This document shows, piece by piece, positions 304 to 4,433 of a stretch of DNA of 4,453 nt. Origin of the DNA: a virus. Lineage: Duplodnaviria > Heunggongvirae > Uroviricota > Caudoviricetes. The stretch is from IMG/VR virus record IMGVR_UViG_2547132270_000012; one strand, 5' to 3'. Under the pieces are notes generated by a model. The model ran no database searches and was not told where the DNA came from. It worked only from the letters and a program-made list of their open reading frames with translations. The position numbers were made by a program, and so were the translations under genes. Numbering within the stretch: position 1 is the first letter of the stretch; every line of letters begins with the position of its first letter.

Positions 304-926
304 TTTTGAATCACCGTTGTTGCATAGGAATAAATAAAAGGGAGTTTTACATATTTCTGGTCAATGGCATCTTTCAGAAAATAGCCTATACCATCGCCAT
401 ACTCTGGTATCTGAATAGAAAAAACACTGTCCGATACAGTCACACTCACATCAAAAGTATGCTGTAACGGCGGGTCTATTCCGTTTTTTCCATGAATAAA
501 CCGCGCCACACGGCGCTTTAACCAGTCAATGCAGAAATGCGAACCGTCAGCCTTATAAAAATTCCACGTTAATATTCGTTTAAAATAATCATCAGGAACA
601 TACGATGCCTGCCCCGGAACGTAATTCCGCATTGCTGCATACGGGATCGTATTGTATTCAATGGTATCGTATGCGCCGCGTGCAATAGCCTCCTCGGAAA
701 CCTGTAGTAAAGGCCTTTCAACGCCATAAATACCAAGCGCAATCCAGTCCAGCAACTGTCCGGTTATTGACTCCGATGTCCAGCATGGCAACGCCAGTTT
801 ATTGAGTGAATCGAGATATTCCTGAGCGATTTCATTGTATGCATCAAAGAACGCAACAATATTCGGATCATCTCTGTACTGTACAAATGGATAAGCAGGA
901 AGAATTTTCTCAGTCAGATATTGCAT
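300..926 (-). CDS. phage baseplate wedge/tail protein, Mu gp48-like (DUF2612-type)
   Basis: Track ORF 300-1034 trimmed to the ATG at 926 (MQYLTEKILPAYPFVQYRDDPNIV...), which has an AGG about 9 nt upstream. The 36 codons upstream of it lie inside the J-like gene in another frame and are R/W/H-rich and not protein-like. Stop is TGA at 302-300; 208 aa. Size and position between a J-like gene and a fibre gene match the Mu gp48 family; the family assignment is from memory, not a search. Confidence 0.65.
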   Translation of the reverse strand: MQYLTEKILPAYPFVQYRDDPNIVAFFDAYNEIAQEYLDSLNKLALPCWTSESITGQLLDWIALGIYGVERPLLQVSEEAIARGAYDTIEYNTIPYAAMRNYVPGQASYVPDDYFKRILTWNFYKADGSHFCIDWLKRRVARFIHGKNGIDPPLQHTFDVSVTVSDSVFSIQIPEYGDGIGYFLKDAIDQKYVKLPFIYSYATTVIQK

Positions 927-2136
927 ACTTGTTGACCTGAACCTGTGATGCCACCGTCGAAAAATAAGAATAGGTATCGCCATAAACCAGACTCGTATCT
1001 TTCGTAGGCGAGACAATATGGCCGTTAATACCAATGCTCACACTAATTGTTGAGATCAACGTCGCATCAACCAGCAGCCTGACAGAACTGGTAAAAATAT
1101 CCTGGATACGCAGAAGATTTATCGGGTGTCCGACTTCAATTGAATTGATGTAATCAGCAACGTTTTGCTGCACAGCCATAGCAATACCCGCCGGATCAAC
1201 ATAATCATCAGACACCGTGTTCCAGGTGATTAGCACCATGACATTTTGTGATGACGGGATAACGAAAGGCACCTGATAAACGTCCGGCGAAACGGTTATT
1301 GAAACCGTGCGTTTTTCCACTGCCGCACCGGACGGATTGCTAACATCGTTGGTCAGTTTCGAAATATCCGGTACAGATTTGTAAATCGCATAAGCCACAT
1401 CATACGGATCACCGCCACCAACAACCGCAACCCATTTCCCCAGCGACGACTGCCGGAAAGAAATCAGGTTTTCGCGCACACCGCTTACTGATTTGAGCAT
1501 CGCTTTAAAGCAATCCGGTGTTCCCTGCACACCAAACATGCCGGACTCCATGACTTCGGCGCGGTATGATGCCCACGTCTGCGCCTCCTGACCGGGCATA
1601 CCTGCGGTAAGGTTCGTGCATTTTACAGGCTGATCTTTGGGTACCGATGTAATGACCTGCGTTACGGTTCCTTCCGGTACAGCCCATGAGCCTGACGTTG
1701 TGGCCACACAGTAGACTGGCTCAGTCTGCCCGCTTTCCGGTACCACCGTATCGCGGGAAACTGCATACTGGTAGTTGCCGTCACCGACAACAAATCCTTT
1801 AGGGATACCAAACCCCGGCAACGCCTCAAACACCACGTATACCGCCGTATTTGTACTTAATCCCTTCTGTGCTCCATAAATGTTTCCGAGTTGCATCAGT
1901 AACGGAATATTCGCGCCGTATGGGCTTACGGAGTTAATAAGATCAACCCGCGCCTGGTCTATTAATGCCAGCGCCCCGACTGCCGTGCTGGCAAGGTCTG
2001 TAATAAGTCCCGCCGGAAGGTTGGCTGTATATCCAGGTACTTTTTCGGCAACTCTGGTGATAAGATTCGCGAGCAAATCATTGGGTGGCGTAGGCTGCGC
2101 ACCCGCACTGGTCATAGTAATTGGTATTTCTGACAT
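910..2136 (-). CDS. baseplate J-like protein (Mu gp47 / P2 gpJ family)
   Basis: Long minus-strand frame (track 910-2178, which begins at a TTG). The first ATG, at 2136 (MSEIPITMTSAG...), is preferred; ATG 2115 is also possible. Stop is TGA at 912-910; 408 aa from 2136. The protein has the Gly/Val/Thr-rich block typical of Baseplate_J proteins (...LGNIYGAQKGLSTNTAVYVVFEALPGFGIPKGFVVGDGNYQYAV...VYCVATTSGSWAVPEGTVTQVITSVP...). Overlaps the next gene by 17 nt. Confidence 0.75.
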   Translation of the reverse strand: MSEIPITMTSAGAQPTPPNDLLANLITRVAEKVPGYTANLPAGLITDLASTAVGALALIDQARVDLINSVSPYGANIPLLMQLGNIYGAQKGLSTNTAVYVVFEALPGFGIPKGFVVGDGNYQYAVSRDTVVPESGQTEPVYCVATTSGSWAVPEGTVTQVITSVPKDQPVKCTNLTAGMPGQEAQTWASYRAEVMESGMFGVQGTPDCFKAMLKSVSGVRENLISFRQSSLGKWVAVVGGGDPYDVAYAIYKSVPDISKLTNDVSNPSGAAVEKRTVSITVSPDVYQVPFVIPSSQNVMVLITWNTVSDDYVDPAGIAMAVQQNVADYINSIEVGHPINLLRIQDIFTSSVRLLVDATLISTISVSIGINGHIVSPTKDTSLVYGDTYSYFSTVASQVQVNKYAISD

Positions 2137-2163
2137 ATTTAAAACCCATATAGGAGATTTTCG

Positions 2164-2766
2164 ATGGACAGCATTCAACTGGAAAATATAAGGAAAGAAA
2201 AGCCAGACAACATTTTCATAATTTTAGGAATTATTCTTATTAACCTTTTCCTATTATCATTTCTCTACATTCCCGAAAAATATGATCGTGTAATAACATT
2301 CACCTTCGCACTTTCAATCATATTATTAATTTATCTTGATTCCAGATTGTTAACAAAATCTGGGTATGAACCAACTATTTCAAGAGCATGGGTGATACTG
2401 TTCGGCGCATTCTTTTTTGTTTTCTGGGTATGGAAACGCTACACATGGTTCGGAGATAAAACAAGGATTCTTTTCTGGGTATTATTGTTATCGACAGGCG
2501 TATCTTTTTATTATTCATATAATACAGAGAACAATAAAATGCTTGGTGAAACAGCCTGTGAATTATCAACTCAAATCATGAGCGAACAATACAACCGCCC
2601 CGATATAAAGTGTTCAAGGGTCGTTGAAATTAAGGAAATTGATAATAATTTCTATAAGGCCAGAGCCATATTTAACAACGGCACAACACAAAGCATTACT
2701 ATAGATGTTAGAAAAGAAAATGGACAAGAGATGGTGTATGTAAGCCTAAATCCTTTAGGTAATTGA
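2164..2766 (+). CDS. hypothetical polytopic membrane protein (4 predicted TM helices plus ~80-aa C-terminal globular domain); candidate superinfection-exclusion factor
   Basis: ATG at 2164 preceded by a strong SD, AGGAG (2153-2157), with a 6-nt spacer. 200 aa with four hydrophobic stretches (about residues 17-36, 43-58, 75-90, 102-119) and a polar C-terminal domain (...CELSTQIMSEQYNRPDIKCSRVVEIKEIDNNFYKARAIFNNGTTQSITIDVRKENGQEMVYVSL...). GC is about 33% by hand count over ten 60-nt lines, against about 55% in the adjacent J-like gene. Function is an inference. Confidence 0.75.
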   Translation: MDSIQLENIRKEKPDNIFIILGIILINLFLLSFLYIPEKYDRVITFTFALSIILLIYLDSRLLTKSGYEPTISRAWVILFGAFFFVFWVWKRYTWFGDKTRILFWVLLLSTGVSFYYSYNTENNKMLGETACELSTQIMSEQYNRPDIKCSRVVEIKEIDNNFYKARAIFNNGTTQSITIDVRKENGQEMVYVSLNPLGN

Positions 2767-2785
2767 TCCCCACCCCTTTACAATC

Positions 2786-2811
2786 GCGCCCAATAAAGTA
2801 TGATTGGGCGC
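2786..2811 (+). promoter_or_regulatory. perfect 9-bp stem hairpin (GCGCCCAAT / ATTGGGCGC, 8-nt loop) 20 nt after the membrane-gene stop
   Basis: Arms at 2786-2794 and 2803-2811 are exact reverse complements. No U-tract follows on either strand, so it is not a classic intrinsic terminator; it could be an RNA stability or processing element or a protein-binding palindrome. Confidence 0.4.
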
Positions 2812-2846
2812 ATGAGGCGTCGAAACCTCTTACAAGCGGTACACAA

Positions 2847-2872
2847 CCAACCCCGTTAGTGTTGGATTTTTT
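2847..2872 (+). terminator. weak intrinsic-terminator candidate (5-bp stem CCAAC/GTTGG, 9-nt loop, then A-TTTTTT)
   Basis: Stem at 2847-2851 / 2861-2865 followed by a T6 run at 2867-2872, about 80 nt downstream of the membrane-gene stop. The stem is short, so any termination is probably partial. Confidence 0.3.
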
Positions 2873-2886
2873 ATGCCTGCTATTTA

Positions 2887-2909
2887 GTGATGGCACGATG
2901 TGCGATCAC
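2887..2909. promoter_or_regulatory. 23-bp near-palindrome (GTGATGGCAC-GAT-GTGCGATCAC), candidate operator
   Basis: 10-bp arms match in inverted orientation at 9 of 10 positions with a 3-bp spacer. It lies 13 bp upstream of the structured RNA element and about 130 bp upstream of the antirepressor-like gene. No convincing sigma70 -35/-10 pair could be assigned by eye. Confidence 0.3.
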
Positions 2910-2921
2910 ATCCCCGATCAA

Positions 2922-3002
2922 TGTCGGGAGGGCGACGAATACAACACCCGAAAGGGGAATAAGTCCGCGGTACTTGTAGCCGTTTCGAACCTCCCGACAC
3001 CA
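2922..3002 (+). ncRNA. tRNA-acceptor-like structured RNA element, candidate C4-like antisense/cis-regulatory RNA controlling the downstream antirepressor gene
   Basis: Perfect 10-bp inverted repeat TGTCGGGAGG (2922-2931) / CCTCCCGACA (2990-2999) enclosing 58 nt, followed directly by ACCA, giving an acceptor-stem-plus-NCCA look. It contains an internal CCC-GAAA-GGG tetraloop hairpin (2947-2956). Segment 2973-2989 is reverse-complementary at 14 of 17 positions to 3015-3031, next to the SD of the following gene. There is no canonical D or T arm, so it is not a tRNA. Strand and exact ends are inferred. Confidence 0.45.
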
Positions 3003-3014
3003 CTTTGGTTCTTC

Positions 3015-3034
3015 TTCGAAAAAGATACAAGAGG
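3015..3034 (+). promoter_or_regulatory. predicted target/anti-SD pairing site overlapping the ribosome-binding site of the AntA-like gene
   Basis: TTCGAAAAAGATACAAG (3015-3031) pairs with 2973-2989 as 7 bp + 1 bp + 6 bp. The SD AGAGG is at 3030-3034 and the ATG at 3040. Confidence 0.4.
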
Positions 3035-3039
3035 TTACT

Positions 3040-3609
3040 ATGACCATCCAACTGATTCCCGTTTTCAGCGGAACTATCTCAAACGAAACTATCCTTCTAT
3101 GCAATGCACGTGATTTACACGATTTTCTTGAAGTAGGAAAAGTGTTTGCAGCCTGGATTAACGCTCGCATTGAAGAGTATGGATTCGAAGAAAATAAGGA
3201 TTTTGTAGTTTTTTCCAATTCTGGAAAAAATAGCGTAGGTCGTCGCCGCAAGGACTACCACCTAACCCTGGACACCGCCAAAGAGCTGGCGATGGTTGAG
3301 CGCAACGAAAAAGGCCGCCAGATCCGCCGATACTTTATCGAGTGCGAGAAAAAGCTGCGCGATGCAACTCCAGACCGCAACAAAATCATCCACGGTTCTC
3401 CTCGAACTGTTGTCATCCGGTTGGACGACACCGGAAATGTCATTTATACCGAAACCGTACCGACTGATGCCGTAGTCTGCACACCTGAAAGTTATAAACA
3501 GTGGATGGAAAAATGCGGCTGGCTGGTCATTCGCCAGGAAGAACTACGACATATCACGCTGGACAGACTTTTTGCCGGATATGCTCAAACCGGAACCTGC
3601 GTCCGGTAA
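3040..3609 (+). CDS. AntA/AntB-family phage antirepressor-like protein (N-terminal AntA domain plus uncharacterised ~75-aa C-terminal region)
   Basis: ATG at 3040 with SD AGAGG and a 5-nt spacer; stop TAA at 3607-3609; 189 aa. The N-terminal ~110 aa carry the motif pattern I recall for AntA-type antirepressors (LIPVFSG...NARDLHDFLEVGK.F..WI..RIEEYGF.EN.DF.......DYHLTLDTAKELAMVERNEKGRQIRRYFIECEKKL). The domain call is from memory, not a search. Confidence 0.75.
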   Translation: MTIQLIPVFSGTISNETILLCNARDLHDFLEVGKVFAAWINARIEEYGFEENKDFVVFSNSGKNSVGRRRKDYHLTLDTAKELAMVERNEKGRQIRRYFIECEKKLRDATPDRNKIIHGSPRTVVIRLDDTGNVIYTETVPTDAVVCTPESYKQWMEKCGWLVIRQEELRHITLDRLFAGYAQTGTCVR

Positions 3610-3932
3610 CTGGTTCCGTTAAAAAACACAACATCGATGTTATAGGTGGGGTTCTCTGCCCCATCTACCTTTGAAATGGCCAATGATGCAAAATACCCGG
3701 CAAACTGTTGCTGAACCATGTTCACATAGTAGTCTGGGTAAATCTGCTGCACGATGCACTGCTGCGCAGGAATACCGTAATTCGCGTAAAACGGCGACTC
3801 CCCCAACCCCAGCTTTAACGTCTGAATGAGCGTCGTCAGCCAGCCGTAGGAGAAATCACCGTTGGCGTCAGATTCTACTGCAACCCATTTTTTGTTGCCG
3901 TTCGCGTCGGTGACGCGGCCCCATGTTCTCAT
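3585..3932 (-). CDS. hypothetical protein (115 aa), third gene of the small minus-strand cluster
   Basis: ATG at 3932 with SD GAAAGG and a 7-nt spacer; stop TGA at 3587-3585. GC is about 50% and the sequence is non-repetitive. Its 3' end overlaps the 3' end of the convergent antirepressor-like gene by 25 bp. Function unknown; a weak gp25/GPW-like G-x7-YG motif was noted but not accepted. Confidence 0.6.
   Translation of the reverse strand: MRTWGRVTDANGNKKWVAVESDANGDFSYGWLTTLIQTLKLGLGESPFYANYGIPAQQCIVQQIYPDYYVNMVQQQFAGYFASLAISKVDGAENPTYNIDVVFFNGTSYRTQVPV
3591..3618. other. hairpin (CGGAACC / GGTTCCG, 14-nt loop) at the convergent 3'-end overlap of the antirepressor-like and 115-aa genes
   Basis: 7-bp inverted repeat spanning the TAA stop of the plus-strand gene. 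It is followed on the plus strand by an A-rich tract (TTAAAAAACAC) rather than U-rich, so it is not a canonical terminator in either direction. Confidence 0.3.
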
Positions 3933-3935
3933 ACG

Positions 3936-4100
3936 TCAACCTTTCAAGTAAATTAGGGTGCCGGTAACCAGAGCGGTGCAAATGATCCACGCTACTGGAG
4001 TCAGAATATGCCGAATACCCCGACATACTGCGATTATTCTCGCAGCCTTATCAGCTCCTTTTGGGGTTGTCTCAGCCTTAAAAATCAGTTCGCTATCCAT
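3936..4100 (-). CDS. small hypothetical membrane protein (54 aa; below the ORF-track length cutoff)
   Basis: Hand translation gives ATG at 4100-4098 and TGA at 3938-3936 (MDSELIFKAETTPKGADKAARIIAVCRGIRHILTPVAWIICTALVTGTLIYLKG). SD AAAGG sits 6-7 nt upstream. The ATG overlaps the end of the preceding ORF, and the stop lies 3 nt before the ATG of the 115-aa gene. One C-terminal hydrophobic helix. Coding status rests on the compact arrangement. Confidence 0.4.
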   Translation of the reverse strand: MDSELIFKAETTPKGADKAARIIAVCRGIRHILTPVAWIICTALVTGTLIYLKG

Positions 4101-4287
4101 TTAGAACCTTTATGATCTCTGCGATCCCCGGAAGAGATTTGGCAACTGCAAACCCTCCGATAACTATAAGAACTGCATAAAACATTCTTCTCAGAACCGG
4201 ACTTCTTTCGAGCAATTTTAGAGCTTCCACAATCCAGTCTCCTCCGCTAAAATTAATCACGGAAGACCTCCAAACATACGTAATCAT
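4093..4287 (-). CDS. small hypothetical membrane protein (64 aa from ATG 4287, or 55 aa from GTG 4260)
   Basis: Track ORF; stop TAG at 4095-4093. The ATG at 4287 has a poorly spaced SD, whereas the in-frame GTG at 4260-4258 is preceded by GGAGG with a 6-nt spacer, so the shorter form may be the real one. Hydrophobic C-terminal half (MFYAVLIVIGGFAVAKSLPGIAEII). Confidence 0.4.
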   Translation of the reverse strand: MITYVWRSSVINFSGGDWIVEALKLLERSPVLRRMFYAVLIVIGGFAVAKSLPGIAEIIKVLNG

Positions 4288-4315
4288 CCCTTGCCTTATT
4301 CAAGGTCAGAAACAG

Positions 4316-4347
4316 AAAGCCCCGACTGTTTGCCCAGTCGGGGCTTT
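4316..4347. terminator. strong intrinsic (rho-independent) terminator, probably bidirectional
   Basis: 13-bp perfect stem AAAGCCCCGACTG / CAGTCGGGGCTTT (GC-rich 10-bp core) with a 6-nt loop TTTGCC. U-rich tracts follow on both strands (plus CGCTTTAT; minus TTTCTGTTTCTG). Confidence 0.7.
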
Positions 4348-4433
4348 CGCTTTATGGATGTAATTTAAAGTGAGCCGGTATTAACCCGGATTTGGTTGCT
4401 TCGACGTGATCGTGCTGCCGCCGCTTTGAACGC

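Follow-up and report, generated by a model that had tools for sequence, protein, structure and literature searches.

The ant gene of the Escherichia albertii window encodes an AntA-domain protein

We analysed a stretch of 4,453 nucleotides (the window) from a virus of the Caudoviricetes, deposited in IMG/VR as IMGVR_UViG_2547132270_000012 and corresponding to contig AEJY01000214.1 of an Escherichia albertii assembly. The window carries an antirepressor-like gene, ant (3040..3609, +), preceded by a structured RNA of the Rfam family sRNA-Xcc1 and by a leader with promoter-like and terminator-like elements. Taken together, these features suggest that ant is probably the payload of a self-contained, RNA-gated cassette resembling the immI region of phage P1.

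The ant gene starts with ATG, 5 nt behind the Shine-Dalgarno (SD) sequence AAGAGG (3029-3034, +), and encodes a protein of 189 amino acids (aa) whose translation agrees with that quoted in the original prediction. An AntA-type motif had been proposed there for the N-terminal part of the protein, and a profile search bore this out far beyond chance: residues 22-89 match the Pfam AntA domain (PF08346) with an E value of 3.9e-27 and 95.1 bits against a cut-off of 27, covering profile positions 2-68 of 68, and residues 1-117 match the PHROG anti-repressor families 377 and 5817 (E ~5e-52). No match to the KilAC/ANT domain (PF03374) was returned for Ant by the Pfam search. The AntA module comprises codons 1-107 (3040..3360, +), with the Pfam domain spanning 3103-3306, and it ends in an ultra-conserved core (codons 71-107, 3250-3360, +) that is preceded by a variable stretch of low G+C content (codons 28-70). 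The AntA domain was shown to have a fold of the KilA-N/APSES-type winged-helix class. It is followed by a hypervariable C-terminal module, the C-module (codons 108-182, 3361..3585, +), which consists of a beta-hairpin and three helices and contains an invariant Gly in a GW motif.

A c4-like RNA is complementary to the ribosome binding site of ant

Upstream of ant, an 84-nt c4-like antisense RNA (2923..3006, +) was recognised by the Rfam model sRNA-Xcc1 (RF02221) with 78.1 bits against a gathering threshold of 53 (E 1e-13), the match covering model positions 1-87 of 87. Its two inner hairpins are enclosed by a 9-bp closing stem (2923-2931 with 2990-2998), behind which follows a 3' ACCA (2999-3002), and the fold has a z value of -3.1. 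It ends 33 nt ahead of the ant ATG, and the list of open reading frames (ORFs) holds none between the RNA end at 3006 and the start codon at 3040. Two segments of the RNA can pair with this short leader. The hairpin loop b' (CUUGUA, 2973-2978, +) is complementary to the word b2 (TACAAG, 3026-3031, +), which overlaps the SD sequence, and the junction a' (UUUCGAA, 2983-2989, +) is complementary to the word a2 (TTCGAAA, 3015-3021, +). The two arms, 2973-2989 and 3015-3031, were also recovered as an inverted repeat (I1) with 82% complementarity over 17 nt.

Same-sense copies of both target words were found further upstream. The word a1 (TCGAAA, 2820-2825, +) repeats a2 and the word b1 (TACAAG, 2831-2836, +) repeats b2, with an equal spacing of 195-196 nt from a1 to a2 and from b1 to b2 (direct repeats D1 and D5). 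Between a1 and b1 lies an anti-SD word, AACCTCTT (2824-2831, +), complementary to AAGAGGTT at 3029-3036, and the inverted repeats I7, I10 and I13 were also recorded for the a1/b1 region. A putative sigma-70-like promoter, TTTACA-16-TATGAT (2777..2804, +), which scored 10/12 in a consensus scan, would start transcription at about 2811; its TATGAT hexamer and the downstream GCGCATGAGGCGTCGAAACCTC recur at related loci. Behind b1, sequence and fold revealed a terminator-like hairpin, CCAAC...GTTGG followed by TTTTTT (2847..2872, +), whose position is kept in related loci and which the terminator scan missed because its loop is 9 nt long. This hairpin would end an IsrK-like leader RNA of about 60 nt bearing a1 and b1.

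In P1, RNase P cuts c4 out of a precursor transcript, and the freed RNA acts in trans. The 9-bp closing stem of the window RNA resembles a tRNA acceptor and has ACCA behind it.

The RNA loop, its target and the upstream copy covary

The RNA is 100% identical in phage Rac-SA53 (2917-3066) and precedes ant at most related loci. Eighty AntA loci were fetched from IMG/VR, 44 of them with a copy of the RNA detectable by BLAST. At these 44 loci the distance from the RNA to the ATG was about 35-40 nt (up to about 85 nt in weaker partial matches), independently of the type of tail that the protein carried. The hypervariable loop of the second hairpin is, locus by locus, the complement of 6-10 nt that adjoin or overlap the SD sequence of ant, as exemplified by the pairs CCTCACTGA with TCAGTGAGG and TCTTTTTGC with GCAAAAAGA. 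Over 23 sequence classes, the Watson-Crick run between loop and SD leader averaged 7.04 nt in cognate combinations versus 4.20 nt in non-cognate ones, and none of 5000 permutations reached the cognate value. A second pairing links the 3' junction of the RNA to a leader word situated some 10 nt upstream of the first target. Here too the partners covary, GAA/TTC being replaced by GAG/CTC in the type represented by phage TL-2011c. Same-sense copies of both words sit upstream of the RNA, immediately ahead of the terminator-like hairpin and its T-run. Of 31 classes, 29 have a word of at least 6 nt that occurs in the leader, antisense within the RNA and again upstream; for mixed-locus combinations the figure was 12%. 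At the level of sequence, the RNA loop, its SD-proximal target and the upstream copy were shown to covary over about 23-31 classes.

Two observations concern the spread of the element. Phage TL-2011c (2571-3865) carries two tandem cassettes, located beside xis/int in Shiga toxin (Stx) phages, in which an sRNA-Xcc1 copy (2571-2660) precedes an AntA-only ORF of 94 aa (2702-2986) and a second copy (3110-3195) precedes an AntA protein of 209 aa. The tail of the 209-aa protein matches only Stx and E. coli phages and none of P22, and was assigned to a third type on this basis; equating this int-proximal gene with the ant that Fogg et al. described in phi24B was rejected for the same reason. When 2767-3620 served as query in a distant-mode DNA search, phages of Vibrio, Moraxella, Bordetella and Ralstonia were returned as well, matches that presumably reflect the conserved RNA element and hint at a wide host range of the cassette.

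The locus resembles P1 immI and the isrK-anrP region of Gifsy-1

The immI region of phages P1 and P7 comprises the c4 antisense RNA, icd and ant1/ant2. The P1 record annotates promoters, a1, b1, c4, a2, b2, icd and ant, with the remark 'repression of icd ant translation', and P1 immI and the window share the order promoter, a1, b1, RNA, a2, b2, SD. The P1 sequence itself places b' (TCACTAAC) in the loop of a hairpin on the 5' side of a' (CTGTCAA), and b2 directly next to the SD. The P1 c4 and the window RNA are also alike in having b' in a hairpin loop, a' in the 3' junction and a closing stem followed by ACCA/CCA. The two systems differ in payload and target: P1 Ant1 has the KilAC/ANT domain (PF03374) without AntA or C-module, whereas the reverse holds for the window protein, and in P1 the RNA acts on icd, a leader gene with ant coupled to it, for which the window has no counterpart. 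A C1 operator is annotated at the P1 promoter. In the window the only candidate is a perfect 9-nt inverted repeat, GCGCCCAAT / ATTGGGCGC, located around the -10 hexamer (2786..2811), found by a repeat search and visible also in the related locus L018; by analogy with Oc4 in P1, it could be the operator for a protein repressor.

In the Salmonella prophage Gifsy-1, whose isrK-anrP region was studied by Hershko-Shalev et al. (2016; PMC4825925), the gene STM2616 corresponds to AnrP, a protein of 187 aa, according to the gene order Q, isrK, anrP, isrJ. The RNA genes lie in the order isrK (overlapping Rfam c4-a1b1), C4, anrP, and the region shares with the window a short a1/b1 leader RNA with a terminator, a c4-type RNA, targets abutting the SD and an antirepressor-like gene of about 187 codons. 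The words TTGGCGT and (A)TCACCG, the latter b2-like, were found upstream of the RNA, in antisense inside it and abutting the anrP SD. The differences are that AnrP has an ORF6N domain at its N-terminus (PF10543, E 4.4e-20) where the window protein has AntA; that the Gifsy-1 RNAs belong to the Rfam families isrK, c4-a1b1 and C4, whereas the window RNA matches only sRNA-Xcc1 and the window leader matches no model; that the published Gifsy-1 model includes a leader ORF of 45 codons, compared with 33 nt between RNA and ATG in the window; and that the Gifsy-1 locus lies downstream of Q and the window cassette between baseplate genes. The two proteins can be aligned directly (BLASTP, 30% identity over 46 aa, E 0.004), and the profile of the C-module matched AnrP residues 133-185 (hhalign 96.1%, E 2.8e-9).

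Overexpression of AnrP induces Gifsy-1 and raises the antQ-operon mRNA, and the long Gifsy-1 transcript is made but not translated (280 versus 4 Miller units), translation being activated 139-fold by the short IsrK in trans (PMC4825925). AnrP is the only experimental handle on the C-module, and it does not identify the active domain of AnrP. In the Gifsy-1 sequence (L087, 34076-34329, minus strand), both start codons reported for 'orf45' (ATGGTGGGGCGTATGG) fall in the 5' strand of the C4 closing stem. This suggests that orf45/STnc1160 is a c4 homologue and IsrK its decoy, a reading that is absent from the 2016 paper (PMC4825925). At other AntA loci, isrK and C4 fill both equivalent slots.

A different explanation would be that the upstream RNA is an independent trans-acting small RNA (sRNA), or a processing or stability element, whose complementarity to the ant leader is incidental. 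The Rfam class itself points in this direction: sRNA-Xcc1 of Xanthomonas campestris is described as integron-borne and trans-acting (PMC2996969), and a passage citing Chen et al. 2011 places it under the control of HrpG/HrpX. The duplexes of the window allele are short, 6 bp for b'-b2 and 7 bp for a'-a2. Moreover, the Rfam models C4 (RF01695), isrK and c4-a1b1 (RF03163) do not match 2760-3120 even at E <= 10, where only sRNA-Xcc1 and a chance match to snoZ185 appeared, so that what connects the window RNA with those families is its layout and covariation rather than a model match. Incidental pairing is nevertheless unlikely in view of the covariation of loop, target and upstream copy over 23-31 classes and several RNA subtypes, the presence of C4 and isrK in the same slots at Gifsy-1 and at further AntA loci, and a site order identical to that annotated in P1. 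Whereas the Xanthomonas RNA is described as acting in trans, the window copy would, judging from its sequence, behave as a c4-type gate linked in cis to ant. We found no paper that treats sRNA-Xcc1 as a regulator of ant, and a 2025 review of phage sRNAs (PMC12197685) does not mention it.

The P22 system offers a more distant parallel. There an antisense RNA restrains translation of ant, as summarised in the same review (PMC12197685). The P22 sar RNA is a cis-encoded antisense transcript and not, as in the window, a structured RNA of the c4 type. The only match to the sar model in the window, at 4290-4351 (+), is sub-threshold, with 24 bits against 43; it coincides with a G+C-rich hairpin, AAAGCCCCGACTG...CAGTCGGGGCTTT, which is located after the small ORF 4093..4287 (-) and is most likely a bidirectional terminator.

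The C-terminal module belongs to an unnamed family

According to the original prediction, the last ~75 aa of Ant resembled nothing that could be named. This holds for the curated libraries, as the region gave no Pfam match at E <= 0.1, no meaningful NCBIfam match and no PDB sequence match, but not beyond them, since PHROG matches and homologues exist. The tail matches PHROGs 14211, 25059, 340 and 2379 and can be aligned across a family of proteins of about 185 aa, with an invariant Gly within a G-W-x-V motif; the AlphaFold2 (AF2) model returned values of 83-94 for the predicted local distance difference test (pLDDT) in the core of the module. Its homologues are difficult to detect. With the isolated 82-aa tail as query, neither tblastn against 50,697 phage records nor a word-indexed search gave a match; exhaustive HMMER and full-length searches were needed, and HMMER over 1.84 billion representatives gave only 18 matches at E <= 0.001.

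The matches place the C-module in several protein contexts: after AntA, after ORF6N (P0123), after Rha (P0126, P0127 and P0131), after Ash plus AntA (P0006), and as stand-alone proteins of 66-115 aa (P0121, P0130 and P0134). In P0129 (171 aa) the module is N-terminal (residues 15-84) and is followed by an apparent second, degenerate copy. The tail is not unique to the window but is a mobile module that recurs, and the fast-evolving family to which it belongs has no name. Some candidates were discarded. Long multi-stretch HMMER matches (P0124, P0128 and similar) proved to be repeat proteins with 'VVKLDSSGNV'-like strands and not homologues, and the match to PDB 8fje 'E8' (E 1.3e-5) was made up of four weak matches of ~5-7 bits each to an internal sequence repeat.

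The same two-module architecture occurs in proteins of about 185 aa from Enterobacteriaceae annotated as 'antA/AntB antirepressor family' and in the Ant of Rac-SA53 (KU052037), a phage of the same type with the gene in the same slot, whose C-module is another allele, only ~19-20% identical to that of the window. In proteins of E. coli and Shigella prophages (for example P0117, PF08346 + PF10548) the same AntA N-module is joined to P22_AR_C, a domain named after the proven P22 antirepressor. The window protein lacks P22_AR_C (PF10548), with no Pfam match, and a remote homology of the C-module to that domain was rejected at an hhalign probability of 0.1%.

These contexts bear on the function of the protein. 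The chief competing explanation is that Ant is a sequence-specific DNA-binding regulator, similar to KilA-N, Bro, Rha or ORF6N proteins, which switches phage promoters directly; the C-module would then be a dimerisation or effector domain and its variability would reflect drift or co-evolution with a partner. The exchange of the C-module among AntA, ORF6N and Rha domains, all putative DNA binders, is what this explanation would lead one to expect. It accounts less well for the stand-alone modules of 66-115 aa, which have no DNA-binding domain and therefore suggest an activity of the module itself, for an RNA gate of the type that guards the P1 antirepressor and Gifsy-1 AnrP, and for the induction of a whole prophage by AnrP, which is an antirepressor phenotype. 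We hold direct promoter control by Ant to be possible but rather improbable. A role of the C-module in setting target specificity is plausible given the hypervariability of the module and its presence in the Gifsy-1 inducer AnrP. Indirect support for an antirepressor function of Ant comes from the module shared with AnrP and from the ant-type RNA gate.

The ant gene is a mosaic

The original prediction had also noted a rise in G+C content within ant, from about 40% to about 55%, and had taken it as a sign of recombination. The rise was confirmed, with 38.5% measured for 3040-3239 and 52.4% for 3240-3609, and the best single change point was located at 3233 (permutation p ~0.01). This point lies inside the AntA domain (codon ~65), not at the junction between AntA and the C-terminal part, and directly precedes the almost invariant block of codons 71-107, whose G+C content at third codon positions (GC3) is 0.75. 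It marks the border between the variable N-terminal stretch and the ultra-conserved core, and is not the main breakpoint, which comparison of ant with Rac-SA53 DNA placed at 3362-3367. The conclusion that the gene is recombinant therefore stands, on the identity switch against Rac-SA53 and on the reassortment of alleles, whereas the composition step as its principal breakpoint does not.

DNA identity to Rac-SA53 is about 100% over 2827-3366, falls to 23-67% over 3367-3576 and returns to about 100% from 3577, so that the mosaic boundaries are at 3366/3367 and 3576/3577. The two Ant proteins show 2 differences in residues 1-107, after which identity collapses and is regained only at the last seven residues. 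These seven codons (QTGTCVR) are retained in many alleles, and according to the ORF list and the alignments the 3' end of ant (3585..3609) overlaps the convergent gene 3585..3932 (-) by 25 nt. Homology to Stx phages spans 2814-3360, comprising the leader, the RNA and the AntA module and excluding the tail.

In an alignment of 42 members, the mean pairwise identity of full-length relatives was 83% in residues 1-27, 58% in residues 28-70, 96% in residues 71-107 and 30% in residues 108-182. The N-terminal and C-terminal variable segments are combined differently among the relatives, which shows that the alleles reassort: P0003 is 63% identical to the window protein in residues 28-70 and 100% identical in the tail, while P0009 shows 86% and 19% respectively. 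Given this reassortment, recombination probably has its flanks in the ultra-conserved core on one side and in the overlapping downstream gene on the other. Neither 5,426 complete E. coli genomes nor 50,697 phage records contained the segment 3363-3570. The exact Ant protein is present on 3 contigs, and close alleles of the C-module occur in P0003 (from E. marmotae), P0002, P0004 and P0005.

One could ascribe both the composition step and the divergent tail to local constraint on codons and amino acids, that is, to divergence in place with no recombination. The step does coincide with the switch from variable to ultra-conserved protein sequence and could reflect selection on that block. Divergence in place is very improbable, because the identity to Rac-SA53 drops at one edge of 3367-3576 and recovers at the other, each time over only a few bases, and because the N-terminal and C-terminal alleles are combined differently across genomes.

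Proposed mechanism

The results are consistent with ant being the payload of a self-contained, immI-like cassette whose product antagonises a prophage repressor, and by analogy with P1 and Gifsy-1 we judge this the probable function of the locus. According to this model, the structured RNA would pair with a2 and b2 and block ribosome binding, as in P1 c4 and Gifsy-1 IsrK/C4, acting either in cis, as part of the read-through transcript, or in trans once processed, so that Ant would not be made in a stable lysogen. The short a1/b1 leader RNA, ended by the terminator, would titrate the antisense RNA or open its structure and thereby turn translation on. Once made, Ant would antagonise the prophage repressor and promote induction. 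The hypervariable C-module would be the most likely surface for partner recognition, and the variable RNA loop would give each cassette its own control specificity, free of cross-reaction with others.

Besides the short duplexes and the lack of matches to the C4, isrK and c4-a1b1 models described above, several points weigh against this mechanism. The b' loop is also complementary to a family-conserved internal loop of the RNA itself, AAUACAAC (2938-2945), and this pairing is part of the minimum-energy fold; in the window allele the b' loop may therefore be self-sequestered. The loci compared are related, and the covariation counts are not counts of independent events. The sign of the regulation is borrowed from P1 and Gifsy-1. 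The term 'antirepressor' may be a misnomer, since the N-module has a fold of the DNA-binding type and the authors of the AnrP study favoured transcriptional activation (PMC4825925). Finally, the knock-out of a P22-type Ant in phi24B only lowered induction-dependent late expression, to ~27-31% of wild type.

Genomic context and further features

The cassette sits in a moron slot bordered by baseplate genes, in an Escherichia albertii prophage that resembles Rac-SA53. The strand encoding ant is opposite to that of a series of baseplate and tail genes (Baseplate_J, 910..2178, -; PHROG 8212; PHROG 7986). Rac-SA53 is the closest phage, with 95.6% identity over 72% of the window, and none of the complete E. 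coli genomes spans more than 81% of it. The gene next to the cassette (2164..2766, +; 33.5% G+C) encodes a multi-pass membrane protein of 200 aa that matches PHROG 12486 (unknown function) and, weakly, a GtrC-like profile (E 4e-4). In relatives the slot adjacent to ant is filled by rac61 and rac62 (Rac-SA53) or by an LprI-family gene (some E. coli).

Since the two genes adjoin on the same strand and were jointly inserted against the direction of the baseplate genes, we considered whether Ant and the membrane protein form a single accessory cassette, for instance a superinfection-exclusion or defence pair. The relatives, however, retain ant and its RNA leader while the genes of the neighbouring slot vary, the shared DNA begins only at ~2814-2827, downstream of the membrane-protein gene, and the RNA and AntA unit adjoins int/xis in Stx phages. 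The PADLOC defence models gave no match for Ant or for the 200-aa protein, and membership in a defence system was rejected on this result. We give the accessory pair almost no credence. The suggestion in the original prediction that Ant might be an effector of the neighbouring cassette finds no support either, as the slot content differs in relatives whereas the promoter-like site and the RNA leader travel with ant into unrelated phages.

Three further features of the leader were examined. A conserved hairpin, GTGATGGCAC...GTGCGATCAC (2887..2909, +), was predicted by folding between the terminator and the sRNA, and its stem changes in a compensatory manner in locus L012 (GGCGCC/GGCGCGG). The 116-aa ORF 2763..3113 (+) overlaps the RNA leader; compensatory changes there indicate conservation at the RNA level, and we therefore took the ORF to be a mechanical one. 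Control by LexA, as for GfoA/GfhA of the Gifsy phages or AntC of N15, was rejected: no CTGT-N8-ACAG box with at most two mismatches was found in 2555-3267, around the ant promoter, and the total in the window was no more than expected by chance.

Discussion

The ant gene described here belongs to a common family of prophage proteins, of which it is a mosaic member. Its cassette is a variation on the known theme of RNA-gated antirepressors and does not represent a new kind of system. The interest of the locus lies in a C-module that has no name, in the connection of this module with AnrP and in the probable role of sRNA-Xcc1-type RNAs as gates of ant in the manner of c4. The locus joins elements that are kept separate in the databases, namely the AntA family, a C-module shared with AnrP, and the Rfam families sRNA-Xcc1, C4 and IsrK in equivalent slots. 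The C-module deserves a family of its own, and matches to sRNA-Xcc1 in enterobacterial prophages should be annotated as ant leaders. The natural variants of loop and target provide a ready set of compensatory 'mutants' for c4-type control, and the natural C-module alleles on a constant N-terminus form a corresponding set for the target range of antirepressors.

Antirepressors allow a prophage to induce itself or its neighbours without DNA damage and so affect the spread of toxin and virulence genes. As a tentative extension, which we regard as possible but would not yet expect to hold in full, the locus might combine two independent determinants of specificity that diversify rapidly, the C-module for the repressor to be antagonised and the b' loop with b1/b2 for the cassette to be silenced. 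Recombining at conserved flanks, these would constitute a combinatorial 'second immunity' in enterobacterial prophages, and the whole sRNA-Xcc1 family would consist of c4-type cis gates. If this were true, members of the family would be cis-linked gates of the next downstream gene and not free-standing, trans-acting virulence sRNAs, including the copies in Xanthomonas and Xylella islands and in integron cassettes, and 'orf45' of Gifsy-1 would be a C4 RNA with IsrK as its decoy.

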